DNA of 63,358 nt, counting the filler. It is 6 parts of 6 records of this genome, joined end to end, with 100 filler letters (N's around TTAATTAATTAA, not from the genome) between each part and the next. Parts side by side here need not be neighbours in the genome. Positions count along the whole stretch, not along the records: positions 16,532 to 31,699 come from SRR15195285_3014; 5 more parts are not named here. The stretch is one strand, 5' to 3'. This document shows positions 9,072 to 55,936 of the stretch, piece by piece (positions within the stretch are counted from its first letter, which is position 1; each line of letters starts with the position of its first letter). The position numbers and the translations under genes were made by a program. The notes beneath the pieces are model-generated. The model made no database searches and had not been told where the DNA came from. It was given only the letters and a program-made list of their open reading frames with translations.

Positions 9072-9171
9072 NNNNNNNNNNNNNNNNNNNNNNNNNNNNN
9101 NNNNNNNNNNNNNNNTTAATTAATTAANNNNNNNNNNNNNNNNNNNNNNNNNNNNNNNNNNNNNNNNNNNN
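9072..9171. other. Artificial contig-joining spacer
   Basis: N44-TTAATTAATTAA-N44, exactly 100 bp; the 12-mer gives stops in all six frames. Confidence 0.99.
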
Positions 9172-16431: not shown

Positions 16432-16531
16432 NNNNNNNNNNNNNNNNNNNNNNNNNNNNNNNNNNNNNNNNNNNNTTAATTAATTAANNNNNNNNNNNNN
16501 NNNNNNNNNNNNNNNNNNNNNNNNNNNNNNN
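16432..16531. other. Artificial contig-joining spacer
   Basis: N44-TTAATTAATTAA-N44. Confidence 0.99.
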
Positions 16532-16652
16532 CCCCAGGACCGATCAAATCACATTGTACTTCCCCGCTACATGGGCGCCGCGCGGGACGACCCGGCGCGC
16601 GGTGGACTCTGAGATCGCGCGATCGATCGCCCCGCCGCGGACGACGTGCGGG

Positions 16653-19600
16653 ATGAGTCCGCGGCTGGCGTGCACTGCCGGGCTGCTGCTGGTGGTGGTC
16701 ACGACGGTGGGAGGCGTGTCGCCAGCGGCCTCCGGCGCCTCGCCGTCGCGCGCGCGACCACCCGCGACCCGCGACCAGCCGGTCGTTGCCGCCGGGTCGG
16801 CGCCACTCTACCTTGACGGCTCTGATTGGACACTCACCGGCGCTGGCAGGGCGTGGACGTCTGGCGAGTGCAACTTCGTCGAGCACCGCGACTTTAACCC
16901 GCAGGGTGCCTCGGCCCAAGTTGTGATCGCCTCGTCCCACTATTACATGGATCGAGCGGCATGCTGCCGGAGCTGCGGAGCGACCGATGGCTGTGCCGCT
17001 GCAGTTTTTCGCAACCCGACTCCGTGCAGCCCATATGCGAACTTGTGCCGAGGCCACTGCACGTTTCGCACTGCGGAGGATTTACTGAGCCCCACGAACA
17101 ACAGTACTGAGAACGTCACAGCATGCATCCCGATTGGCCTGCAACCCACGCCAACAATCACCATCAACGCCACAGTCCCAGGCGACCTAGTGACCGACCT
17201 GCAGCGCGCTGGTGTGATTGCGGATCCGCTGACAGATGCCAACTTCAAAAACACGACTTGGTGGAACGGGCGACGATGGAGCTACAGCAAGAGCTTCACT
17301 TGGCCGCCGGAGATTAGCGCGGACCACGGTGCTGGCGATGAAGGTGAGGTGCTGCTGGTCATGGAAGGCATCAAGATGGGCGCCAACGTGTCGCTCAATG
17401 GCCAGTACCTGGGAACAGTGACGGATCAGTTCGTGCGCCAGGTCTGGCCGGTTGGTAAAGTCCTCGCCCAGAGTGACCTCGGTGGTGATAACAACAGCAA
17501 TATCCAGCACACGATTGACGTCATGTTCGACCGTGAGATTGCGACAAACGCGCGGTTCATGGCCTGCTCAGGGGGATGGGACTGGGCCCCTTACTCTGAT
17601 CTGCGATCGGGTGAAGGACACCAGATGTTCTCACGCGGTGTTTGGAAGTCGGTCTATTTACTCAAGGTCCCTGTGGGCACGCCCGCCGTCCTCTATTCCA
17701 CGCCTACCACCACCTTTCATGGTGCTTGGCCAGTGAAACCACTCCCGGATCCGTTGCCAGACGGAGATGCGTACTTCACCGTTAACACGACGGCTCACTT
17801 TTGGTCGGCTGCGCCGATGCGTGGTACGTTGACGGTGATGGGGGAGTGGGGGGCAAGCGCAAAATCTCACTGCATACTTCCAGCTGGTACTGGGGTGTGC
17901 ATTGTACCAACACTGCAGGCAAAAGGGGTGGAGCTCTGGTGGCCAAACGGTCTCGGCAACCAGCGACTGTACAACGTCACCGCTACCTTTGTCCCGGATG
18001 CCACAGCAGTTGCACTAGGAGCCAGCACCACCAGGGCTGAGGCTATAGTCGTGCGTCGCATCGGCTTCAGGTTTGCTCCACTAGTGACCATAAACGACAC
18101 ATCAGCAGAAGCAGTCGCTGCTGCGGAGAACATGACTGGCACAGGCAACCATACTGTGATGCTGCGCGTGAATGGCGCCGCCGTTTTCGCCAAAGGTGCG
18201 AACATGGTACCAATGGAGGTTCTTGAAGGTCGCTACGTGCCTGGCCAGCACCGAAACCTCGTGGCGTCTGCTGCCGCTGCAGGTTTCAACACCCTGAGAG
18301 TCTGGGGTGGTGGCATCTGTAAGTTATTCAGGCACGTACACGTATTTATGGTGCAAAAGTGCCGACTCTGACAAACATTCGTCTGCTGTGTATCTGTCTA
18401 CGTGTACCTGTGCATTTGTGTAGACCCAGTCGACGAGTGGTTTGACGCGTGCGACGAGCTCGGCATTCTTGGTATAATTGATATGATGTATAGCACTGAC
18501 GGTATCTTTCCAGGTGCCGAGGATACGCCAACACAAGAGGCAGAAATACGCCACCAGATACGACGCATGGGTCATCATCCAGCGATCGTAGTGTGGTCCG
18601 GCTGCAACGAGTGTGCGGGCAACGGGGGAATTGGCCATTTGATCGACGTACTCGCTGAGGAGGATCAATCTAGAGCTGTGCGCGCTGCGTCACCTTCCAT
18701 TGGCTTCGGTGCTGGCGTGTCGACTCTGACAGATTTTCCCTCTGGAGGCGAGCTGATGAAGCGGCACAGCGGGCCACCGAACCCTGTCGGCGAACGCCAT
18801 GGCCCGTATAACAAAGGTGTCGATGGCTGGGCATCTGTTAATGGTGCTGGGCAGCCGCCGAAGCCACCAAATCCTAGCATAAACGCATCGGCGACGACTT
18901 TGGCGCAGATCGAGCCAGCATATGCAACTGGTGCGGTCGTGCCTGGATACTTTGTGTCTGAGACAGGCGCAACAACCATGAGCAGCTTCGAGTCGATGAG
19001 CGCGACTCTGAGTGAAGATAACTGGGGGCTGCATTCACCACCGATGTTCGAGCGCAATTATGCTTGTGACCGCTGGATCTACTCATTCTTCCGGCTGATT
19101 AATCTGAATGAAACTGGCGCCCCAGCAATGCAGCGCCAGATCTACTTCTGTCTCTTCGGCCAGGCACTGTATATGAAGCAGCAGATCGAAGGGTGGCGCT
19201 CTGGAAACATTTGGGGCTTATTGATTTGGCAATACAATGAAGTTTGGCCGACTGGTGGATGGGTAAGCTTAGTCTCAACCCCTGATCAGAGCACGAGGCA
19301 CACATTTGTCTGGATCTCGAGGGTCGAAATGACCTCAATCGTGTTTTCAGGGAACGATCGAGTACGGTACGCCTGTTGCGGGCCAAGTCAGTGGTGGGAG
19401 ATGGAAGCCCTTACAGCATTTCCTTGCGGACAGTGCGTTCGCAGACGTGGTTGCTTCCTGTGGGACATCACAGAGCTTCCACCAGCTCGGGCTCATTTGC
19501 TATGCTCGGTGCGGAAAATCAGTCCGTCTTCCTTGCATTTGATTTCTAATTTGACGGAGAGGTGCCGTTTGATACAGGAACGATCTGCCGACCAACCAGT

Positions 19601-20586
19601 CAGTGCATGTGATCGTGGAACTCCTACATTTTCAAACGGGGCACACGGACACAGTCTCAACGGTCGCTATTGACCTGCCTGCAGGCGGTGGCACTACTGT
19701 GTTCTTTTGCCCAGAAGGTCAGGCTATCTTACCAACAGCAGCATCACTGACAGGAACACCGATGCCTAAGGCCGTGTCTGTCGCTACGGCATGCAAACCC
19801 TTCAAAGAGATACTAAACGCCACCGGCTGCACCACACAGAGCTGCATCCTGAACGTAACTGTACAGGCCACACCATTCGTGCCACTTCCACCCCCCCCAT
19901 TCCCCCCCCCACCGCCCCCACCACCGCCACCTACCCCACCAGCTCCTCCTCACCCCCCACCACCTGCTCCGCCACCTTCGAGAGACTGCACGTTCACTGA
20001 AAACACCGACTTTCGGGACGGAGGGATTGGAGGCGGTGTTCAGTCTACTAGCCAAGCGGCCTGCTGTGCTCTCTGCAGAGCTCACCATAACTGTGGGGCT
20101 GGCGTCTGGCTGATGAACGGAAAAGAACCCCAGTGCTACCTGAAATCGGGCGCGTCACAGCCATATACTCGCCCTGGACGCTATGCGTGCGTGCCGAAGA
20201 AAGACGAGACGACACACCAGAACGAGGATCTTGCGATGGTGATGATGACCACTGGCGACGGGCATCTAGATCACACACACCAGCACCAGCAGCGCGTGTT
20301 CGCACGGAATCTACTGCCACTCGTAGCTCCCGGGCAGTTCGAGCTGCCCATAACAACGGTGACGGCGGATGTCAATGACGACGGGAGCATCACGCTGACT
20401 GCCTCGGCGACCGCGGTCTACGTGTGGCTCTCTACTCTCGCGCAGGGCAGGTTTGATGATAACGGACTGATACTATTGCCAGGGGAGAGGATAGTGCGCT
20501 TTGTGCCATTTGGCGAACTGGATGTGAAGCTACTCCGCTCGTCCTTGCGAGTGGAGCATTTGCAGCAGCACCTCTCGGCTGTGTAG
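16653..20586 (+). CDS. Secreted GH2 beta-mannosidase-like enzyme with two Apple/PAN domains; exons 16653-18318, 18424-19262, 19351-19508, 19578-20586
   Basis: Signal peptide; motifs TVPGDL.TDL, GWDWAP, LWWPNGLG, FAKGAN. The spliced product gives [28 protein letters not shown] (acid/base), FVSETG (nucleophile), WQYNEVWPTGGWGTIEYG and GGRWKPL. All three introns are GT-AG and frame-consistent. Confidence 0.9.
19888..19977 (+). repeat. Poly-proline linker-coding C-rich low-complexity tract
   Basis: Encodes PPPPFPPPPPPPPPPTPPAPPHPPPPAPPP just before the second Apple domain. Confidence 0.85.
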
Positions 20587-20966
20587 ATTTCGAGTCAGAA
20601 GAACGCCTTCGTTTGCTTTCCTTTTGTCACGAGACAGTCTTGGGCGCGTGCGTGTGCGCTAGGAACCTTGCACTGTACTCTTACGTGTTGTCACCTCATT
20701 GCAGCTTGCCAGTCGCGCTGGCTTTTCGTTAGCTACGCATAATTACGGTCGCCCTGGTTGGTCAATCGCGCGTGCTGTTCGTTTAGCCAGACACATGGAC
20801 CCATCGACCACCCCGTGCGGACGCCGTCTCTTTCGCCGATGCGTCACCGTTGCCTCCGCCACCGCCATCGACACCGTGGGTCGCTCCTTGGACTATCGGT
20901 GGAAGTATCCTCGCTGTATCTGCTCTTGTTAGAGCCGTGCGGGCAGCTTCCTGTACAGCGCCTCAG

Positions 20967-23436
20967 TCAGCACGCGCAAATGCCAAAGAGCGTGTGCAAA
21001 AACTCCGAGATGTAGTAACCGGCTGTCAACTCGTGAGCCCCATCCTCGGGTTCCCAATACACGCAATGCCGTATGTCAACATCAGTCACAGTCTGTGACT
21101 TTCGCAGTCGTTGTGCACAGTTCTGGATGTAGGTGACGTGCGGATCGAACTGTTCATCCACTGACGCACACAGCTTGTGGTACAGCTTTTTATCCCTGCG
21201 CGAGAAGTCGCCGTCGAGGATGGTGGCGAGCACAAAGACCTGTAAGCACTGACCTTGCTGCCTGGAAGTCAGCTCGCCCATATTTTCGAGGTAGTCGTGT
21301 TCCGAGTCGACGTAACCGATGGTGTTGTCGACCTCTGCTGACATGCGCAAGGTATGCACAGCGTGCTTCAATAGCACCTCCTGTGTGGGATACAGGCCGT
21401 TTCGCTTGACAATAACCACAGCGACAGAACGCAGTAGCTGCAGCTTGAATAACGCCGAGAGCTCTTCCGTTGGCGTTTCAACAGAACGACTTGCCGACTC
21501 GTTCAGGATGGAATCAAAGAGCTCCACAGCAGTTGCGATCCCGATTGACCGTAGCTCTGCTTGCTTCATCACGCCATGACTAATTAGGGCGTTCCATAGC
21601 ATCGTGGCTGGAACCGCCATGTAAGGAACCGCGTACTTGGCTGCGTCACGTGACACCAAGCGCTTGAGCGCAATCTTGAGCAAGAAGCTCGTCAATGCGA
21701 TTTTGGCTTTGTACAGCACAACGAAGAGGATAACCAGGCACTTGCCGTGCTGTCTACTGTCTTTGAGTGGATCAACCCCATGCACCACGTTGTTGTGGTG
21801 GGCCATCTCGAGCGCTGCCTGCACCAGGAACTGCGCAATATGTGTGCGGTCTCGATTGAGAGGCGTCAGCCGAAGGCCAGCTGCATGCGCAGTCTGCATC
21901 ACATGCCTGAGCGCGTAAAGATACAGCGTGGAGATTTCGATGACGCTGCATATCAGCAGTGTACAAAAAACTATGAGAGCGAAGCCCTTGATCTCCGTTG
22001 GCGATGACGGCTCTCCAGTGTCAGGGTTTTCTATACCATTCGTGTTCAAAAGGTATGTTGCCACGTTCTCTGATAGAGCTGTGCATAGACTAGAACAGAA
22101 CCCAAAAAGGCACCCGTAGGAGACCATATGCCGATGGTTCGTCCTCAACTCCCGCCGCTGATGATCGCTGAACAAGTGTACTTTGCCCTCTGTAAGTCGA
22201 GCATACAATGTTGCGCTGCTTGCAGTGATTGCAGCAGATTTACCGTCCGGTTGCTCGTGTTCCCTGCGGGCATTTTTCTCAGCTGCGCGCCGCTCTTTTC
22301 GCTTCAGGATGTTCACTCCGAACCGCTCGGCAGAGCTTAGTGATGCCATCATCATCTTTTCTTCCTTTCGATCCACTGGAACGTCCAACCTGTTGAGAGC
22401 ATGACACTACTCAGATGCGTACAACGCACAGTCCGATATCGCAACAGCACAGGCAGGTCGAGATAGGCAGGGGAAGGGGGAGGACAAAAACCGCTCACGA
22501 TACTGTCATCAGCTGGTTCGGGGTCAGGAATTCCAACTTGGCACCAAATACTGGATGGAGCCCAGCTCTTGCCATCCCGTTCAGGTAGTCAAGATACGTC
22601 AGGCCCGTTGCACCTTCAGCATGACTGAACAGGGCCCAGAACGCTGCGAATTCATCTGAGCTCATGTGGCCTAGCAAGGTGCTTGCAACGTCACGCATCT
22701 CTTGCATCGTCAGTTCGCCATCTCCATCGACATCGGCTGTGTTCCACACGTATTTGAGCAGTCGCAGTTTACGTACATGGTCCCTCCAGTCCTCGTAATC
22801 CTCTGGGACGAACGCCCCCGCTCTGCCACTCACGATTAGGTACACAAACATGTGGTAGTCAAGTTCATCTGCGGAATTGGATATGGTCACGTCTGCGGCC
22901 TTGCGAACTGAGTTTCTCGTCACGGCTTTCACTCCTTTCTTCAACGCGCCCACAGCCATCGCCCCAGCTGCCTTCCGCTTGACGGCGGCCTTGATCAGAC
23001 CATCGAGGTGCTTGTCGGCAGGGGAAGCGGAGGTTTCGCGGCGCTCGAGCTCTTCCCACTCCTTCGTGATGAGGGTCTCCATGTTCTCGAGGTCGAGTGT
23101 TTGAGCACATTTGGTGCCACCGAGCACACGGATCATTGCCAGAAGCTCCTCAGCATCCAGGAACCCGTTCCCGTCCACGTCGGCAGAATCGAACGCAAAC
23201 ATGAGTTCTTGCAGCATGCCGTCATTGAGCTGAAGATCCTTGTCAACCGTGTTGCTTCCGCCAATCTCGGTCTCAAAACTCGGAGCGTTGCCACCGTCGA
23301 CCTCGTTCTCAAAGGCCCCAGCAGCGGCAATCCTAGGGGAACCAGCACCATTCGCCACAGGATTCTTGAATTCGGCCTGTCCCAGTTCCAAGTCTTCGCT
23401 GGGTTGCCGGTCCGTATCCGCAAGCATGCTGGGCAT
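20967..23436 (-). CDS. EF-hand protein fused to a membrane domain resembling the bacterial LBF_2804 family; exons about 23436-22499 and 22389-20967
   Basis: Canonical EF loops DVDGNGFLDAEE and DVDGDGELTMQE. The intron GTGAGC...AACAG (22390-22498) joins the two ORFs in frame. The C-terminal half has QAALE...GVDP, LYKAKIALTSFLLK..LKRL, AVPATMLWNA, which I recall from LBF_2804-like proteins. Start codon uncertain. Confidence 0.7.
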
Positions 23437-24933
23437 CCGCGTGGGGCGTGCCCCGTATAGAGCACGCGTAGACTCTACGCTCACGTCAACGAGGCCGGCC
23501 GCTGCGCCTCGCGGACCGGAGTTTGATGCAGACGCCCCCGCAATCCTCACAGTACGTGGCCACCGACTCACAGCCCCGTCACGACGTGCGCTGACTTCTC
23601 CTGACCAGCGCTAGGCAGGAAGTGAGCGCATGCCATGGTGCAGCAGGACTGTACGTACAATATAATATACCACCTCGCGCTGCCTGCACTGCACGCGCCG
23701 GTGTACTAGTAGGAATTCCTACTACTAGGATCCTAGTAACAATCTATAGTATGCAACAACAAACTTCGACCGTGGATTCCACAGTGGATGGAACACCCGG
23801 GCCCGCATTTACTGTTCACTCGCGATCTACCGGATATTGAATACTGTAGTACTACAGTAGTCGAAAACTGCGTTGATGTGCTGTGGACGCGACAGAGCGT
23901 GACAGCCTGACACACGCCTGCACTCCTCGACGACCAACGAACGCATGCGAAATCCCCCGTTCACGTCTGGTCTTCGACTGGACGTACTAGTACTATTGAT
24001 AGTACTGGTACACGGATCATGCACATGAATTTAGGTACCATACTACTGTAGTACTATAAAGTATAATATACTAGACGTCATTTCTTTTGTTGACTGGAGA
24101 TCTACAGTACGGTACTCACTCTGTCGTACTTGTGAAGAATGCTCCTCGCCTCGGTCGCTGCGCTCCCTCGGCTCGGAGCGGTTAATCAATATTCGGGTAG
24201 GTAGCACTATTCTAGAATTCACTCTATCGTCAATATTCGGGTAGGAATTCCTGTAAGTAAAAGACAAATCGATAAGAGCAATAACAATACTCTACCGGCC
24301 CGCCACACTCTTACAATAACTCGAATCACAATTTTACCTTTTCTACTTGTGGTTGGCCCCAGATGCTGTAATATTATACAACCCCTGGTGCCAAAGTCGA
24401 GGAATCAGAACCAGAATCAAAATTACCAAGCCGTATTTTGTACTATAATCAAACAGGTCCAAACACCTGTACACGCAGTTCGTGAGTTCGACAAATATCG
24501 ACCGTGACAATATGATATATCGGTAAACGGACAAAATGTTCAGCAGACGTGAAGGAAATGCTCGGATTGATACTCAAAGAGGCGAGGTGGAAAGTCTCCA
24601 TTCTACGGTGACGGCGTCCCGCCCGCGGCGGGCCTACAGCTGTATAGCTGCACCTCCGGCGTGAGCGAGCGAGCACCCAGCGGCAGCGCAGCGCCCGTTG
24701 CGCGCGACGACGCACGCACGAGCACGCGCGCAGCTCGCAGGGCAGCGCGCAGCGAAGGCTCACCGCCTCGCTTGCAGACTCAGCGGAGGCGCGGGCTGAT
24801 TCGCTCAGCCCAAATGCTTGTCAGCAGCATACGCGAGGTCTGCAAGAGTGCTGCTGCTGACCCCCGCAGGCCAGCCGTCGCTCACAGGACGAGTCTGGTG
24901 CTGATCGCAGAGAGAGTGGCATAGGCCAGCACG

Positions 24934-26163
24934 ATGAAGACACCATTCAGCAAGCGTCAAAGGCGCAAAAAGCTGCACCCATCCAAAACGTTCGTCATCA
25001 GAACTCAGCACCCCTCGCTGGAGGCACGTAAAGAGAATGCTGCGGACGAGGCGCTACGAGATTGCGTGACGGCGCTCGAAACCCAAGGCGATTGGTGGCA
25101 CCCGACTGGAAGAAGTTGGCGGAGTCCTCTGAAGATTCTTCTCGGCGTGTGCCATCCTGCGTATCGGAACACGCACGCGTATCTGCAGCCGGAAAAGCAG
25201 GAACACATTGTAGACATGATTGAGAGCTACCTCTCGATGCTAGCCCTGTTCAATTCGCTGGTTGGCGTGGCAGCCATTGAGATGTCGATGCATCCCGTTG
25301 ATCTCTCTGTGAGAATGTCGCAGAATGGCACAGAAATGCTACTGCTGAGCATATCGCGCTGCGGCTGGTTTGCCTTGGGACCTATCTGCTTGACGTCTGT
25401 TGCCGCTGGGATACACGTGTTGTGGTCCATTCAGGCCGTCCCAGTATCTCAGCGACGGAAACATCTTTTGAATAATGAGCTCTACTACTCGATGCCGTAC
25501 TCGATCGCCCCTCTCACGTTTCTGCTCCTCCACGTTAGCATCTTTAGCGGTTGCTTGGCTTCTGTGTTGCGATCTCAGAGCAATTGGTTGAAAATCGCGG
25601 AGATATGCGGCATGGTTATTGGGTTCATCCCTGTGTTTCCGTTGGTGTATGCCAGTGGAGCAATGATACAAGACGCGTTTCGACCGTGGATGATAGGAGC
25701 TAAAAAGCAAGGGCACGATGGGACAAGGGAGGGCGGGGAACGACAATCATCACTGAGCGATCTCAGTCATGAAATGACCGACACCCGTAACAACAATTCG
25801 AAGGGAGGGCCTAGTGGGGAGCACAATGATGCGGCCCCTAGTTGCGAAGAGCTTCGCTCTAACCTGCAATGTCTAGGGCTAGAGTTTTGCCAGGACCTAA
25901 TCTTACTAGAAGGGTTGACTTGGGTCATGATGCGGGACATCATCAAGACGACTAGCTCGTATCTATTGGTGGATCGCATGCTAGAGAGTGCCGGAATTGC
26001 GAAGGCAGGGCACCGAGCAGCCATCATACTTATGCTGCACGAGGACATCCAGAAAACGAAAGATAAGGAAGACTTGGGCACCGACGACTTACGCGCCAGA
26101 TTGAATGGTGATGATTTAGATTTGGATGCTCTAGATGCTGAGCTAGCAATAAATGTCAGTTGA
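24934..26163 (+). CDS. Hypothetical multi-pass membrane protein with a C-terminal SAM-like domain
   Basis: 409-aa ATG-initiated ORF with about 4 hydrophobic segments; the C-terminus LQCLGL....LILLEGL...MLESAGIAKAGHRAAII matches the SAM pattern. Confidence 0.6.
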   Translation: MKTPFSKRQRRKKLHPSKTFVIRTQHPSLEARKENAADEALRDCVTALETQGDWWHPTGRSWRSPLKILLGVCHPAYRNTHAYLQPEKQEHIVDMIESYLSMLALFNSLVGVAAIEMSMHPVDLSVRMSQNGTEMLLLSISRCGWFALGPICLTSVAAGIHVLWSIQAVPVSQRRKHLLNNELYYSMPYSIAPLTFLLLHVSIFSGCLASVLRSQSNWLKIAEICGMVIGFIPVFPLVYASGAMIQDAFRPWMIGAKKQGHDGTREGGERQSSLSDLSHEMTDTRNNNSKGGPSGEHNDAAPSCEELRSNLQCLGLEFCQDLILLEGLTWVMMRDIIKTTSSYLLVDRMLESAGIAKAGHRAAIILMLHEDIQKTKDKEDLGTDDLRARLNGDDLDLDALDAELAINVS

Positions 26164-26295
26164 TAATTACTATATGCCACCATTGGTCGCGAATGCGCAA
26201 CATTTACGCAGATTGTGCAACCAATGCTATAGATCCATTTGGTTGTTAGGAGCATTGACGAACGTAGGAAGTTAAGGTTGCAGTTAATGATGAAA

Positions 26296-26547
26296 GTTGT
26301 AGGAGCTCCTACAACCCCTCATGAAGACATTCACGACAGCTGATATAGGGCATAAGGCCGCCTTATGCCCTACTAGTACATCAAGGTGCGTACCGAATAG
26401 CGACACTTGTGAGAGGATTGAATGGAAATGAATTTATATGGAAAGCACGATTGCTCTCGACCGAATTGCCGCACGATGACTCAATCAGGTGGTGGTGGTG
26501 GCGGTGGGGAGTCGAGAGTGGATCGAGCCACTCTCGACCCCCTTTTT
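26296..26547. repeat. Cluster of three palindromes/hairpins between convergent genes
   Basis: GTTGTAGGAGCTCCTACAAC (26296-26315, perfect 20 bp); TAGGGCATAAGGC-C-GCCTTATGCCCTA (26346-26372); GTCGAGAGTGG-ATCGAG-CCACTCTCGAC (26511-26538), followed shortly by TTTTT. Confidence 0.9.
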
Positions 26548-26717
26548 ACTCGCGACCCCCTTGGCTCTACACTTAAAACGGATGCAACGAATACTTAGGA
26601 TACGAAAGTGCTTTCATCAACACCACGGGTGCGTTTTCCAACGTATTCAAAACTAGTAACATGGGCGCTGCTCGACTTCTTGCTTCAGCGCGCCAAGATG
26701 GCGCAGCGGCTGAAGGT

Positions 26718-29700
26718 TTAACGATGAGAACGTCTGTAGGTGACCAGATACTCCGGATATGCACGCCCTGTTGGCAAGACAGAGCAATGGTTGCAGTACG
26801 GTCAACTATCCACTCGCAAACACGACATATCACCCGATGGATATGGCTCTAGATGTAGAAGCATCTCGTTGGCTGCAGTGTTCGCACAAGGCCTCTTGAC
26901 ACGTACCATTCTCGTAGACAACATACACTTTAGATCCATTCGTGGTGCCCGTGACCGTGTCGTACCTTCGTCCGTTTTCGCCAGCAACAGTTGGTGGGAA
27001 GCGCAGCTCACTGTCAGGCTTGAGCTCGACCGCATCACCAACCAGCAGCTTGGTAAGCATAAAACACTGCTCACCTGTTTGTTAAAAAACATTCGGTTCA
27101 GACTCAGGCCCAGAATGACGCAGATTCATTCCCGAAGTCATGGGAGCAAGTGAACAAGGACGACTGCTGCGCTGCAAATGGAATAATCTCTGTCTGGAAC
27201 GAAACAACTAGCACGTACCGTTGGAGCGTTTGTAACTGTAGTCATGGGAGTAGGAAGCGTTCTCTGCAAAGTAAAGTGCGACTCCCCACATACCTGACTT
27301 ACAATACTGCATCATGAAACCGTCTTGGACATCTTTGTATATCATCGCTGGGTCTGTGCCCCCGGAGCTTCTGTCACGTGGATTTCCAGTGCCATGCCAG
27401 ACAGAGGCCTCCAAAGGCATGCGCTTGTTGACCTTTGTCATTCGCTCTCTCCGCAGGCAGTAGTAGTCCCACAGGGCTAAATTCTGGATGCGCTGCAAAC
27501 GCACGACGTGCGTCACTTGCTTGGACTTCATCGTATCCAAAAAGCGGTCCGCGACCTGCTTGAACTCAACTGAAGCTCGATTCACAGAAACAAGCACGCA
27601 GTTGTTTGCCTGCGGCAATCCTGTCCAACTATCAGGAGGAGCAAACTCGGACACTCTGTGTTCGGTGCGCCGCATATTGCGTGTTATTTTAGTTGCTTTG
27701 TTGACCTGCTTCGGTGCAGACCGATCACGTAGGACAGCGATGTAGTCGTGGCCACGACTTTGGAAAGAGCAACCAGCAAATTTTGACTGATACGCCTGTT
27801 CAAGAACAGTAATTATCGAGTCATCGTCATACGCAATCCACTTGCCATCGACATCGCACTCCCATGTTACTACGCTACTGTGTGGACCACCTGAGTTTAC
27901 GGCTAGCTCGGACGGTCTGGTCTGCAACTTAAATAGCTTCTTAGAGACATCCATAGAAAGGTGCTTAAACACCATCACCTCGTCGTATGCCACTCTACCA
28001 TTGCAACGGGGGCAGAGGATCGACAGGCAGCCAAGCTGTAAGATCTCGTCATCTTGCAGAGTCTGTTCGACGTGTCGACTGAAGCACTCGTTGCAAAGAA
28101 AATGTGCCTCGCGTGGCAAGGCTCTCACCGACCTACATTCGATACCTTCTGCGAGACCAAATACGCCCGCGCAGTTCTCACAACGCCGCGTGAGAAAAGC
28201 ATCCAAGGGTCGTGGGAGAGCTGTGTCCATTGCTGTGCCAGACCATCTGAATCCTCGGACGCTATGAGTCCTAGCAGGCTGGATTCGGTTTAAATTCTCC
28301 GGCCCGAGCGCCACCTCTCCAGCAAACGCTTCGTTTATCCAGTATCGTTTATCCAGATGAACACGGATGCGTACGCTGCCGTCATCAGCGACAGACGATC
28401 CAACGACTATCCCAGTTGCGCCACGGTATACATGTCCTTGTTTTGTGTTCACCTTAACCTTATCCAGCAGCTGGAACAGGTCACTGCAACCTATCAAGCG
28501 CCTTGGACACTGCAAGAAAAAGCTCTTTTGTACGGACGAAAGGACGGGTGTGAAGGACTCAGTGCTGCCGTCGTCATCCCAGACAACTTCTAGTGGCTCG
28601 GCGCAATCTCCGATCGATGTGATCTCCAGTGCGTTGGTGGGCTCAGCTTGTTGTCCTGTTCTCAGGCCAGTTGCTCGTCCCCATCTACCGACCGGCACAT
28701 AATCATCTGGTCCAGGTATTGCCGAAACAAGCATGCCAGGTTGCGTCACCACGATGTGGCTGAATGTTGTCAAGTCAACCCAACCGTCTACTCGCACGAC
28801 TTTGGTGCCATGTCCATCCTCACCTTGCCCAATGCTTTCAGTCTTGCTCGAATCAGCCAGAAGAGTCCGCAGCTGCAAGGCCACGTACTGCTCGGACAGC
28901 GCACGCGAATCGTGCTCCGAATATTCTATCCACCCGTCTGATCCTCCTCGCTCCCACTTGAGCCTGTCCTGAGCGGCCGCTTCTAGGTGTTTCATCTTTG
29001 CGCGGCTCTCAGCTGCTGCTTGCGCAGCATTCCTAGCAATGCGACGCTCGCGTGCTTCGTTCTCTGCGTTTGTTTTGGTGGCGTTCTCCTCCTGCGCCAG
29101 TGCCAGAGCTGTTGCTTTGGCGGCATCTTGCTGATGTTGCGCTTCGCGTGCCTCGTTCTCTGCCTTTGCCAACTTGTGCTGAGCTGCAAGAGCCTTCTGA
29201 CGCGAAGCTTCTGCTGCCTCACTCTGCTGTGTGGCCAGAAGACGCAGCGTGGCTGCTTCGTCTGCTGCCACGGCAGCCTTTTGCATCGCAACTTGCTTGC
29301 GATCGTGTAAATTCATACGCAACTGCTCGAGATGCTCTTGTTCATGCAGCAGTCGTTGGCGCTCAGCCTGTGTTGCAGCTTTCGTATCTGCAAGCGCAGC
29401 TTGCGCCGCCTGCTCCGCCTGCAACTTGGCCTCCGCCTCTACACGTTCTTGTTCCGCAATCTCTTGCTCGTGCTGGGCGGCTTGTGCTCTCTGGAGTGCA
29501 GCTTCCATCTCAGCATGCTGGTGCTCTGCTGCAGCACGTTGTAGCTCTGCCTCTACTGTTGCAGCTTCAGCCGCCTGCCGCGCAACTTCTTGACGACGTG
29601 TGTTTGTGAGCGCCATTTGAGCCAAGTGCTTTCCCTCTGCTGATATCCTCAGTGCCGCCATCTGTCTGGCCTGTTCCTTTTCTTCAATCGCAGCCTTAGC

Positions 29701-31699
29701 ATCTCGCTCTATTTGCAGCCTTGCCTCTGCTTCTAACCGCTCCTGCTCTGCCTTGTCTCGCTCGTGTTGTGCAGCTTGAGCTTTATGGAACGCAGCTTCT
29801 CTCTTTGCACGTTGCTCCTGTGCCATCGCATGTTGAGCCTCGGCCGCAGCGGCTGCAATCTCAGCCTCCCGTTGCGCGTGCTTTGTTTGTTCATCGGCAG
29901 CAGCTGCTTTCAGCTCTGATAACTTGTGTTCATCAGCTAGATGTTGCAGCTTCATTGTGGCAAGCTGCTCTTGCAACGCATGCAACTCCAGCTTTTCATG
30001 CGCATCCTCCTGCTCTGCCTTGATCGATGCTTGCTCCTCTCGCAGACGCTTCTGCTCACGTCTCCTCTCCATCTCTCCTGGCGCGTGCCGGTAGCAACTG
30101 TCGCACACGCGTTTAGTGACTGGTGGTTCCTGCTCTCGGAGCTTATCCACAGGTGTCATCGGACCCCGGCCATGAACAGGCACCCAACGGTTGAGTTCCA
30201 TAGTCTTGCTTGAACAATTGTGACAGACAATCCACCCACAGTACCGACAAGTGTGTTGCCAGGTTCCGAAGATGAGCCCGAACTGGCGTTCGCATTGCAT
30301 GCAGGCCTCGACTTCTGCAGAGTTGATAAACCTGGGATGTTCGCGTGCGCGCAGACATTCCACCTCCTTCAAAGTTCCGAAGGTTTCTCGCAACTGTGAG
30401 TGCGTGTCACTAACGGTGCCAGCGGAGCTCGCTGTGTGTGGAGACTGCTCTGGTTCCTCTGGATCGATTCGTGCTGTAGCAGTTGAACGCTCATCCGCAC
30501 CATCGATGATGGGGCTTCTCGCACTGTACTTTTCCTGGATCCGTGAGAGAAGGTCTTCCTCGTTGCCGCGCCACTCCGTTAATAGCTGGTCAACATCACG
30601 GAGCTTCCGCGGACTGTGCAGCGCATATATGCGGGTGATTTCCTGGCGAATAGTGTCAAGTGGTGCCTCTCGGCCCCGAAGCTCGTGCAGCTCGTGACAT
30701 GCATGGAGCTCAGCGAATCGGTGGAAGTCGACCGTTCCTGATGCGGTACACTGCTCCAGTATACTGGCATCACCCGGCTGTTGCACGACGAGATCCAGCT
30801 CTAGCATCTTCAGTACAGCATCGAAGATACCCCTTTCCACTAAGCCCGATGACGGGTGTTCTTCATATTCCTGACAAGCTGCAACAACCATAGGCAGCAT
30901 TGTGATCATTTGTAGATTTGTCGATGCTGCTGATCGAAGACTAGGACGAGGACTGGCGAGGAAGTCAGATGCAACAGTGTTGCACAGCTCCGCCACCAGA
31001 TCCAATAGCACCTGCTGCTCCTCCGACTGGAACGCAATCAGATGAACCTCTCGCAGTCCCTCGAACGCACTATCGCGCACAACTTCCACGCCGATACGCA
31101 AGACATGTTCCAGCGTACGCATTCCACGGAAACTCCCAGCTGAAAGCAGGGAGAACCCCAGGTACTGTATACCAGCCCCGGCCGCCACAGACATCGCTGA
31201 GCGGTAGGCATCGCACAGCAGGCTGTCGCCATCCTCAGGCGTTTGGTCCGGCCGTAGGCGTCGGTAGTTTGGCCCAACAGTGTGGACGACGTTCCCCGCA
31301 TGTAGCCGTCCGAAGCGCCCGGGGCCGGTCAGCACAGAGCCCCCGGTCTGGATTCGCTCTGCACAACCACGCAAGCCACTGTGTGCGAGCACCGGCAGCG
31401 CAAGGCGAGCTGCGGCGAGCTCTGGGCCACCCGCCTGGGTGATCGCGCCATCCACGCCGCCACCACCTAATCCGCCGCAGTTCGCGGCATTGACGATGCC
31501 AATGCAATCGCGCGGCCAGTCGGTGCGGTCGCCAAAGTCGAGCACGCTCCCCGCGGAGACGACGAGCTCGCCTGCACCGTGCGCGAGCGCTGCCCGGCGC
31601 AATTCACGCACGCCAGCCGCCTCGGGAACCGCAGGTTGCACCGCGGGCTGCACCTCACGCCAGAGCAGTTCCGGCTCCGGCTCCAACTCCGGCTCCGGC
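26718..31699 (-). CDS. Macrodomain-FYVE-like-coiled coil-WWE-RING-WWE-PARP (mono-ADP-ribosyltransferase type) protein; 5'-partial; exons 31699-27219, 27074-26907, 26767-26718
   Basis: Macro: IVNAAN..GLGGGGVDGAI, VVHTVGPNY. FYVE-like CxxC...HTCRYCGWIVCHNCS. WWE-like KWERGGSDGWIEY and TWECDVDGKWIAYD. RING-like C..C...C...H..C..C...CP.C. PARP: VWHGT, MWGVALYFA. Two GTACGT...CAG introns restore YDTVTG...KVYVVYENGRAYPEYLVTY. Confidence 0.88.
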
Positions 31700-31799
31700 N
31701 NNNNNNNNNNNNNNNNNNNNNNNNNNNNNNNNNNNNNNNNNNNTTAATTAATTAANNNNNNNNNNNNNNNNNNNNNNNNNNNNNNNNNNNNNNNNNNNN
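31700..31799. other. Artificial contig-joining spacer
   Basis: N44-TTAATTAATTAA-N44. Confidence 0.99.
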
Positions 31800-48980: not shown

Positions 48981-49080
48981 NNNNNNNNNNNNNNNNNNNN
49001 NNNNNNNNNNNNNNNNNNNNNNNNTTAATTAATTAANNNNNNNNNNNNNNNNNNNNNNNNNNNNNNNNNNNNNNNNNNNN
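48981..49080. other. Artificial contig-joining spacer
   Basis: N44-TTAATTAATTAA-N44. Confidence 0.99.
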
Positions 49081-55836: not shown

Positions 55837-55936
55837 NNNNNNNNNNNNNNNNNNNNNNNNNNNNNNNNNNNNNNNNNNNNTTAATTAATTAANNNNNNNN
55901 NNNNNNNNNNNNNNNNNNNNNNNNNNNNNNNNNNNN
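55837..55936. other. Artificial contig-joining spacer
   Basis: N44-TTAATTAATTAA-N44. Confidence 0.99.

Follow-up and report, generated by a model that had tools for sequence, protein, structure and literature searches.

A spliced picozoan gene that joins a PARP domain of mono-transferase type, a WWE domain, a MacroD-type macrodomain and a RING-like finger in one polypeptide

The stretch of metagenomic DNA considered here (the window, 63,358 nucleotides) consists of six contigs joined end to end. The contig at positions 16532-31699 carries one minus-strand gene, running from 31699 to 26718, whose product unites domains of ADP-ribosylation with a zinc finger whose predicted fold is RING-like. 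The gene is real, expressed, nuclear and picozoan. The reading that we favour, at a little above an even chance, is that it encodes a picozoan protein of at least 1565 residues, in which a mono-ADP-ribosyltransferase core resembling PARP12 and PARP14 is combined with a WWE domain, a RING-fold finger, a FYVE-fold finger, a rod of ~360 residues and an N-terminal macrodomain of the MacroD type. An initial annotation, made from the letters of the window, had placed the gene at 26718-31699, and these limits coincide with the stop codon and with the end of the contig.

The gene has three exons, which after splicing give 4698 nt, 1565 codons and a single terminal stop, and it includes a minus-strand open frame of 1496 codons that spans 31698 to 27211. 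Exon A (27219..31699, minus strand like all the parts that follow) is read in the frame from 31698, and supplies residues 1-1493; its end, in phase 1, lies just ahead of a GTACGT donor. It is followed by intron 1 (27075..27218), of 144 nt and the form GTACGT..ACAG, by exon B (26907..27074; 168 nt), which encodes the second half of the PARP domain with the motif KVYVVY, and by intron 2 (26768..26906; 139 nt, GTACGT..ACAG), predicted from its splice signals and from the collinear C-terminus. Exon C (26718..26767) encodes the conserved C-terminus of the PARP domain, AYPEYLVTY, and closes with the stop codon TAA at 26720-26718. The splicing of intron 2 restores the C-terminus ..AYPEYLVTY.., collinear with the related proteins P0006, P0007 and P0009 and with avian PARP14.

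Transcription is seen directly in public data. Part of the stretch occurs in 19 public runs from 15 studies, all of them marine or seawater metagenomes, and half or more of its sampled words are found in seven of the 19 runs; three are RNA libraries. Contigs of four runs, three of RNA and one of DNA, were placed on the window. The RNA contigs match the gene at 99-100% and one of them is spliced: a contig of 254 nt from run X19 joins 27074 to 27219 without a mismatch and thereby skips intron 1, the gap being 144 nt long and bounded by GT..AG on the strand of the gene. Against this gene structure it has to be set that two contigs from RNA libraries run unspliced through or into intron 1, which may represent DNA in the library or pre-mRNA, and that no RNA contig among the runs placed bridges intron 2. 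A contig of run X1, the kind of which was guessed to be DNA, joins 26768 to 27306 and skips 537 nt (depth 17.8; shorter side 28 letters); this joint probably comes from a diverged relative.

The contigs of the window are separated by five identical joins (44 N, TTAATTAATTAA, 44 N; positions 9072-9171, 16432-16531, 31700-31799, 48981-49080 and 55837-55936), and since the contigs were strung together to make the window, genes that flank a join may not be adjacent in the genome. The join at 31700..31799, which has no strand, cuts off the 5' end of the gene described here; since the contig ends at 31699, at this linker, the N-terminus of the protein is missing. Two related proteins, P0003 and P0004, reach further N-terminally, with the start Met ahead of a Pro-Glu repeat. 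In the window a Pro-Glu repeat of the GAGCCG type lies at the very end of the contig (31533-31699), where word depths in four runs range from 59 to 42,637, as against ~1-11 elsewhere; this low-complexity repeat, common to many unrelated molecules, probably broke the assembly there. A tblastn search of the window with the protein gave no match beyond the gene itself.

The gene has close relatives in the same domain order. A search with residues 960-1496 returned 14 proteins at an expectation value (E) of 0.001 or below, and the whole C-terminal half is common to P0003 (1634 aa, 80% identity), P0004 (1700 aa, 79% identity) and P0005 (a fragment of 1190 aa, 53% identity). By Pfam, P0003 and P0004 contain Macro, FYVE, WWE and PARP domains, and P0005 contains FYVE, WWE and a sub-threshold N-terminal piece of PARP, in each case arranged as in the window. 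The 90% cluster of P0004 has six members, which come from ENA, Logan and EukProt; one lies on a contig of 29.6 kb, and the EukProt member is labelled Picomonas judraskeda and derives from a single-cell genome. The cluster of P0005 includes Picozoa sp. COSAG06, and P0006 comes from Picozoa sp. COSAG02. The gene belongs to a picozoan related to, yet distinct from, Picomonas judraskeda.

These data also bear on the possibility that the long gene is an artefact, either a chimeric contig or a pseudogene whose frame is open by chance. An artefact might be suspected because metagenome contigs were joined to make the window, because the gene lacks its 5' end and because contigs of other runs break near 28314-28374 and 30603-30760. 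However, a frame of 1496 codons is too long to stay open by chance, the same collinear architecture is present in at least three other independent assemblies, single-cell genomes among them, and the RNA contigs described above, one of them spliced, agree closely with the gene; we regard an artefact as highly improbable. A chimeric misassembly, which the initial annotation had named as a danger to its reading, is excluded because several assemblies made independently recovered this architecture, P0003, the P0004 cluster and P0005 all showing the domains in the order seen here.

The catalytic domain is interrupted by intron 1. Its first half (residues 1376-1493; 27219..27573, minus strand) contains the His of WHGT and the Tyr of LYFAE. 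The exon A part alone reaches 29.0 bits with the Pfam PARP model (PF00644, residues 1376-1492; cut-off 26.7 bits) and matches chains of PARP10, PARP14, PARP15 and PARP12 with E between 6e-7 and 4e-5. Exon B alone gave no PARP match in the PDB; because it is too short by itself, the triad was mapped through homologues. P0007 aligns over the full domain to PARP12 (E 6e-21), which sets the Val of KVYVVY on the Ile at the third triad position of PARP12, and in a local alignment the same Val falls on the Glu of P0039, a relative with an H-Y-E triad. The spliced domain is collinear with P0006, P0007, P0009 and PARP14. The triad thus consists of His (WHGT, 1433), Tyr (LYFAE, 1474) and Val (KVYVVY, exon B), and since its Val aligns both to the PARP12 Ile, by way of P0007, and to the P0039 Glu, the H-Y-V assignment is confirmed. 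To judge from these alignments, the catalytic domain is of the mono-transferase type, closest to PARP12, PARP14, PARP15 and PARP10.

It could be argued that such a domain is dead, like that of PARP13 or PARP9, and that the protein is a scaffold which reads or erases the ADP-ribose made by others. In favour of this, Glu is absent from the third triad position, Ala stands in place of the Gly two positions before the catalytic Tyr (GVALYFAE, as against G.G.YFA in P0006 and P0007) and eight residues are inserted after the catalytic His. However, the NAD+ site retains its His and Tyr, the third residue is hydrophobic as in PARP10, PARP12 and PARP14, which are active mono-transferases, and the domain is highly conserved among the homologues. 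A dead PARP domain seems quite unlikely to us, less so than an artefactual gene. Directly before the putative transferase lies a WWE domain (residues 1278-1344; 27667..27867, minus strand), which reaches 37.9 bits in Pfam against a cut-off of 21.1; its best solved relative is the WWE of DTX1 (E 2.6e-4), and the aromatic, Gln and Arg columns are kept.

At the other end of the protein, residues 69-190 (31129..31494, minus strand) form a Macro domain of the MacroD type, with 60.1 bits in Pfam (cut-off 22; E 2.5e-16) and with the motifs NAAN (70), GGGV (79) and HTVGP (139). The closest solved relatives are the MacroD of O. iheyensis (5fud/5l9k, E 5.4e-12) and E. coli YmdB (3.7e-11), while the macrodomain of PARP9 compares with it only at E 8e-3. 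MacroD-type domains are defined by N-x6-GG[VLI]D, by the His of 'DGAIH' and by G[VIA][YF]G. The first motif is present, NAAN...GGGGVD aligning identically to the MacroD chains. Two observations weigh against an eraser: the His of 'DGAIH' is Thr in the window (DGAIT), and the second glycine motif has become GSFR, or GIFR in P0003 and P0004. Viral macrodomains that lack the DGAIH His are active, so the picozoan domain may still be active despite its loss. In its relationships the domain is MacroD-like and of the predicted hydrolase (eraser) type rather than like the macrodomains of PARP9 and PARP14.

The part of the protein that decides how it should be understood is a RING-like cross-brace finger followed by two helices (27919..28182, minus strand), recognised from its ligands, from an AlphaFold model and from comparisons with Foldseek and VIA-align, the Pfam RING models remaining below cut-off. 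The ligands follow the pattern C1173-x2-C1176-x11-C1188-x10-H1199-x2-C1202-x2-C1205-x23-C1229-x2-C1232. In alignment A2, six of them (C1173, C1188, H1199, C1202, C1229 and C1232) are invariant in 7/7 sequences, as is H1246, and C1176 and C1205 are each absent in one divergent relative; the ligand columns and the nearby Phe, Gly and Pro are kept down to 27-36% identity. The AlphaFold model of residues 1150-1275 has a predicted local distance difference test score (pLDDT) of 69.4, with 75-88 in the core, and shows a beta-hairpin and then a helix directly after H1199-C1202, as in RINGs. When this model was compared by Foldseek, the first 19 rows were all RING-between-RING (RBR) ligases (HHARI, ARIH2, parkin, HOIP, RNF216 and HOIL-1L). 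VIA-align, run on 48,161 representative chains without Foldseek, gave ten chains at Z>=5, all ten of which contain RBR RING1 domains. The best of them is ARIH2 (Z 6.5, root-mean-square deviation 4.4 over 90 residues), the isolated 94-residue RING of UbcM4-interacting protein 4 reaches Z 6.4 over 90 residues, and most of the rows that come next are other RINGs, with the RING-WWE of RNF146 at Z 3.6. The list is uniform, but all these values lie under Z 8, a range in which a match may reflect a common arrangement and which is below the level that excludes chance. The ESM Atlas matches of the finger score 0.80-0.87, all under 0.9, and are no more than leads; those clusters that have a name contain zf-C3HC4, IBR or UBA_ARI1. 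On the strength of its ligands, of the modelled fold and of its relatives (described below), the finger is most likely a divergent RING derived from an RBR RING1.

A considerable number of observations weigh against this identification, and they give substance to a rival explanation of the whole protein: that it is a mono-ADP-ribosyltransferase like PARP12 and PARP14 with its own hydrolase and reader, in which the finger serves only as a zinc module for structure or protein binding, left over as a relic from an RBR RING1, and the chain has no ligase activity. By sequence, no Pfam RING model comes above cut-off on the protein (zf-RING_14 E 0.23, zf-RING_5 E 1.7), the finger submitted alone gave only sub-threshold zinc-ribbon and RING matches, and the finger-only profile (A4) found no RING in the PDB, only KCMF1 at E 0.0086; the search with the full-row profile (A2) was dominated by PARP. 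The scores of the modelled fold are modest, the best Foldseek E being 0.046 (probability 0.99) with none at E <= 0.001, and the VIA-align maximum being that of ARIH2. The canonical RING spacing is C-x2-C-x(9-39)-C-x(1-3)-H-x(2-3)-C-x2-C-x(4-48)-C-x2-C, whereas ten residues separate the third ligand from the fourth in the window, compared with the usual 1-3, and seven in P0003. In P0004, P0005 and P0041 this loop, which runs from the third Cys to the His, even tolerates an insert of ~90 residues; P0004 and P0005 have it in conserved form, and its site in the window is 28117-28140, between C1188 and H1199. It is uncommon for a RING loop to house an inserted domain. In many active RINGs the last Cys is followed by a basic 'linchpin' residue; at this position the relatives variously have N, I, S, D, R, H or K, and the residue between the first two Cys is polar. 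Judged by the known contacts of RINGs with the ubiquitin-conjugating enzyme (E2), both features leave ligase activity uncertain.

The surroundings of the finger have to be considered as well. RBR RING1 domains work together with IBR and RING2. In the window protein Pfam gave no match to IBR, direct reading found no RING2, and the WWE begins ~45 residues after the finger; a Deltex DTC domain is absent from the six Pfam families matched at E<=1. Since there is neither an IBR nor the catalytic Cys of a RING2, the thioester mechanism of RBR ligases is unavailable in this chain, and the missing IBR, RING2 and DTC agree with a relic. Three points speak against a relic: the eight ligand positions and the neighbouring residues have been preserved in distant relatives, every high-ranking structural match is a RING that binds an E2, and the finger adjoins a WWE, as the RING does in RNF146 (an architecture whose match here is the Z of 3.6 given above). 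A finger without ligase function is thus a serious alternative, though we hold it to be clearly less probable than the RING-fold reading favoured above. Ligase activity of the finger itself is uncertain, and for the ubiquitin ligase (E3) part the interpretation is no more than plausible.

The distribution of the finger gives this question a wider setting. A profile of the finger finds nine proteins, in five of which a PARP domain is present. In P0039 (915 aa, from Picozoa sp. COSAG02) and P0017 (899 aa) the finger comes with the coiled coil and the WWE-like part, as in the window, but the PARP domain attached to this cassette is a different one, and both the WWE and the macrodomain are absent; the third triad position is Glu in P0039 (H-Y-E, NEFIVF, the poly-transferase type) and Gln in P0017. 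The finger stands without PARP in P0019 (298 aa) and P0040 (333 aa), which have a sub-threshold IBR match ~60 residues downstream and, in P0040, a sub-threshold zf-C3HC4_2 match on the finger. It also stands without PARP in P0042 (1031 aa), where a protein kinase domain is followed by the finger and, by eye, a Cys-rich motif. In all three, a helical linker after the finger leads to the conserved Cys-rich motif LNLKCPRC..., and perhaps they form a small family of Picozoa that descends from RBR ligases. That the finger stands directly before WWE-PARP and recurs with other PARP domains of the lineage, including one with H-Y-E, points to a functional link between it and ADP-ribosylation in Picozoa.

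The remaining parts of the protein lie between the macrodomain and the finger. A FYVE-fold zinc finger (residues 459-538; 30085..30324, minus strand) has 47.6 bits in Pfam (cut-off 27.8) and its Cys ligands are present. The signature by which FYVE domains bind phosphatidylinositol 3-phosphate (PI3P) consists of WxxD, R(R/K)HHCR and RVC. Aligned to the FYVE domains of RUFY1, EEA1, Vps27 and Hrs, the picozoan finger has FINS for WxxD and TWQHTCR for the RRKHHCR of RUFY1, and only RVC is kept; this degenerate signature makes PI3P binding of the classical kind doubtful. The next stretch (residues ~542-905; 28984..30075, minus strand) is helical and rich in Ala, Glu, Gln and Arg (27% Ala, 16% Glu, 12% Gln), is kept in P0003, P0004 and P0005, and is, by its composition, a putative coiled coil. 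A helical motif, ..IYALHSPRKL.DVDQLL.EW.G.EE.LL.RIQEKY, was also noticed at 30540-30651 (residues ~350-386), between macrodomain and FYVE; it is kept in P0003, P0004 and P0005, and Pfam has no match to it.

After the rod, a WWE-like region (residues ~912-1010; 28669..28965, minus strand) resembles a WWE in its N-terminal beta-beta-alpha part alone. Pfam WWE gives it 16.2 bits against the cut-off of 21.1, over profile positions 5-29 (the N-terminal half) only, a local WWE profile built from 24 domains gives 1.8 bits, and hhalign of the two family alignments gives a probability of 43% (P 2.5e-4, 57 columns). A phmmer search with residues 905-1275 against 1.84 billion representatives found only four proteins at E<=0.001, too few for a deep alignment of the region. 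The AlphaFold model of residues 905-1150 has a pLDDT of 42.9; only its SH3-like part could be compared, the WWE-like part being unusable. This SH3-like small beta-barrel (residues ~1076-1144; 28267..28473, minus strand) sits between the WWE-like part and the RING-like finger. It has a Pfam match to SH3_12 at E 0.003, below cut-off, and the low-confidence model of the barrel (model residues 172-240) matches KOW, PsaE, Tudor and SH3 barrels at Z 6-7.9, in agreement with the SH3_12 match.

It is also worth mentioning that in P0003 and P0004 the SH3-like barrel contains an insert of ~115 residues with sub-threshold PDZ matches, which the window and P0005 lack; the corresponding point in the window is 28330-28350 (residues 1117-1123, KRYWINE). 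The segment 28314-28374, which has some cover in the depth table, is not spanned by any contig listed for runs X1 and X9, and one X1 contig diverges at 28389. Given its presence and absence in relatives and the gap and divergence of contigs near 28314-28389, the PDZ-like insert may vary among strains or paralogues.

Taken together, most of the domains read by the initial annotation have been recovered: the macrodomain with its three motifs, the FYVE-like finger (its PI3P signature mostly lost), the long coiled coil, seen as the helical stretch, and the PARP domain with H-Y-V after splicing. Two readings hold in part. The claim of two WWE-like domains flanking the finger is borne out for the second, which is well above the Pfam cut-off, and the first is weak. 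The RING-like finger has its eight ligands and a predicted fold like an RBR RING1, of modest score, with all Pfam RING models below cut-off. The missing N-terminus and the SH3-like barrel are additions to what that annotation had described.

If the RING-fold reading is correct, then the parts could work together in the following way. The helical rod would bring the chains together in dimers or oligomers, and the FYVE-fold finger would place the protein on a membrane or a partner. The PARP domain would use NAD+ to mono-ADP-ribosylate itself and targets in its vicinity, and the WWE beside it would retain the ADP-ribosylated products. The RING-fold finger would dock an E2 charged with ubiquitin, which would lead to the ubiquitylation of ADP-ribosylated targets or of the enzyme, a coupling modelled on the logic of RNF146, in which a RING stands beside a WWE. 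Finally, the MacroD-type domain would strip mono-ADP-ribose and reset the system. A bolder version can be formulated, in which the protein would be a self-contained machine for ADP-ribosylation-dependent ubiquitylation: working on an oligomeric scaffold bound to a membrane, the mono-ADP-ribosyltransferase would mark itself or a target, the WWE would sense the mark and switch on the RING1-derived finger as an E2 activator without IBR or RING2, and MacroD would erase it. Such a protein, which picozoans would use against viruses or the nucleic acids of ingested prey, would have evolved independently as a counterpart, in one chain, of the tankyrase/RNF146 and PARP9-14/DTX3L axes. We consider this version unlikely, more so than the relic explanation.

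The cross-talk of ADP-ribosylation and ubiquitin is an active field, which includes RNF146 with tankyrase, DTX3L with PARP9 and PARP14, and the ubiquitylation of ADP-ribose itself, and animals mostly keep the writer, the reader-eraser and the E3 in separate proteins. A fusion that occurs naturally reveals which parts work together, and one from Picozoa, an uncultured and poorly known phylum, would offer a compact single-chain model for biochemistry. This value is limited by the fact that fusions of PARP to domains of the ubiquitin system have been in print since 2010, and that the activities of the present protein are predicted from its sequence. The Dictyostelium discoideum protein pARTg (DDB0232928), a clade 3 PARP, is described as having an N-terminal U-box, which is a modified RING, together with a macrodomain and a PARP domain (Citarelli 2010, PMC2964712; Perina 2014, PMC4245714; Gunn 2016, PMC5087659), and all six PARP clades are stated to have members linked to ubiquitination domains (Perina 2014, PMC4245714). 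Because the Dictyostelium combination was published in 2010 and taken up once more in 2014 and 2016, a module for ADP-ribose and ubiquitin in one chain is not new, and the novelty implied by the initial annotation was overstated. In the open-access literature that was searched, no RING-WWE-PARP or macro-RING-PARP fusion is described besides the Dictyostelium U-box protein, and ADP-ribosylation genes of Picozoa appear only in passing mentions; a preprint on the co-evolution of DTX3L and PARP9 contains none of the words 'fusion', 'fused', 'single polypeptide', 'protist' or 'invertebrate'. New, as far as that literature goes, are this architecture, the PARP-associated family of RBR-RING1-like fingers in Picozoa, and the lineage.

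Compared with pARTg by published description only, the picozoan protein likewise has in one chain a RING-like module, predicted to be of the E2-binding type, a macrodomain and a clade-3-like PARP. The U-box of pARTg, however, is N-terminal and has no zinc ligands, whereas the picozoan chain has an internal zinc finger like an RBR RING1 directly before WWE-PARP, and it adds the FYVE finger, the coiled coil and the SH3-like barrel. With human PARP12, PARP11 and PARP14 the protein shares the WWE-PARP tandem and the H-Y-hydrophobic triad, and with PARP14 also the presence of a macrodomain; in these human proteins the RING-type finger, the FYVE and the long coiled coil are missing. The combination of macrodomain and PARP recalls PARP9, PARP14 and PARP15, but the picozoan macrodomain is of another class, those of PARP14 and PARP9 being more distant from it than the hydrolases MacroD and YmdB. 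The RBR E3 ligases (ARIH1/HHARI, ARIH2, parkin, HOIP, HOIL-1L and RNF144A) give the best matches of the finger, over ~90 residues that include the helices after the last pair of Cys; they have an IBR and the catalytic Cys of RING2, both of which are lacking in the picozoan PARP protein.

The comparison drawn by the initial annotation was with the heterodimer of PARP9 and DTX3L, the ADP-ribose/ubiquitin module of which this gene was suggested to fuse into one chain. The domains do lie in one real, conserved and spliced gene, and, like the heterodimer, they bring together macrodomain, PARP fold and a RING-like finger in a unit that might tie ADP-ribose to ubiquitin. PARP9-DTX3L, however, is made of two proteins, the RING of DTX3L is accompanied by a DTC, and the triad of PARP9 is Q-Y-T where the picozoan one is H-Y-V. 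Since the picozoan finger resembles an RBR RING1 rather than Deltex, with no DTC found beside it, the macrodomain resembles MacroD and YmdB, the catalytic domain is closest to PARP12, PARP15, PARP14 and PARP10, and the E3 and antiviral roles would follow only by analogy, the likeness to PARP9/DTX3L is weaker than had been stated. In the order of its parts the protein also recalls RNF146 (Iduna), an E3 activated by poly(ADP-ribose), which has neither PARP nor macrodomain and depends on tankyrase, and whose similarity to the finger is far below that of RBR RING1. In both, a domain of RING fold, predicted in the picozoan chain, stands directly beside a WWE, the arrangement that in RNF146 couples the reading of ADP-ribose to the activation of E2 and that, by analogy, may do the same in the picozoan chain.

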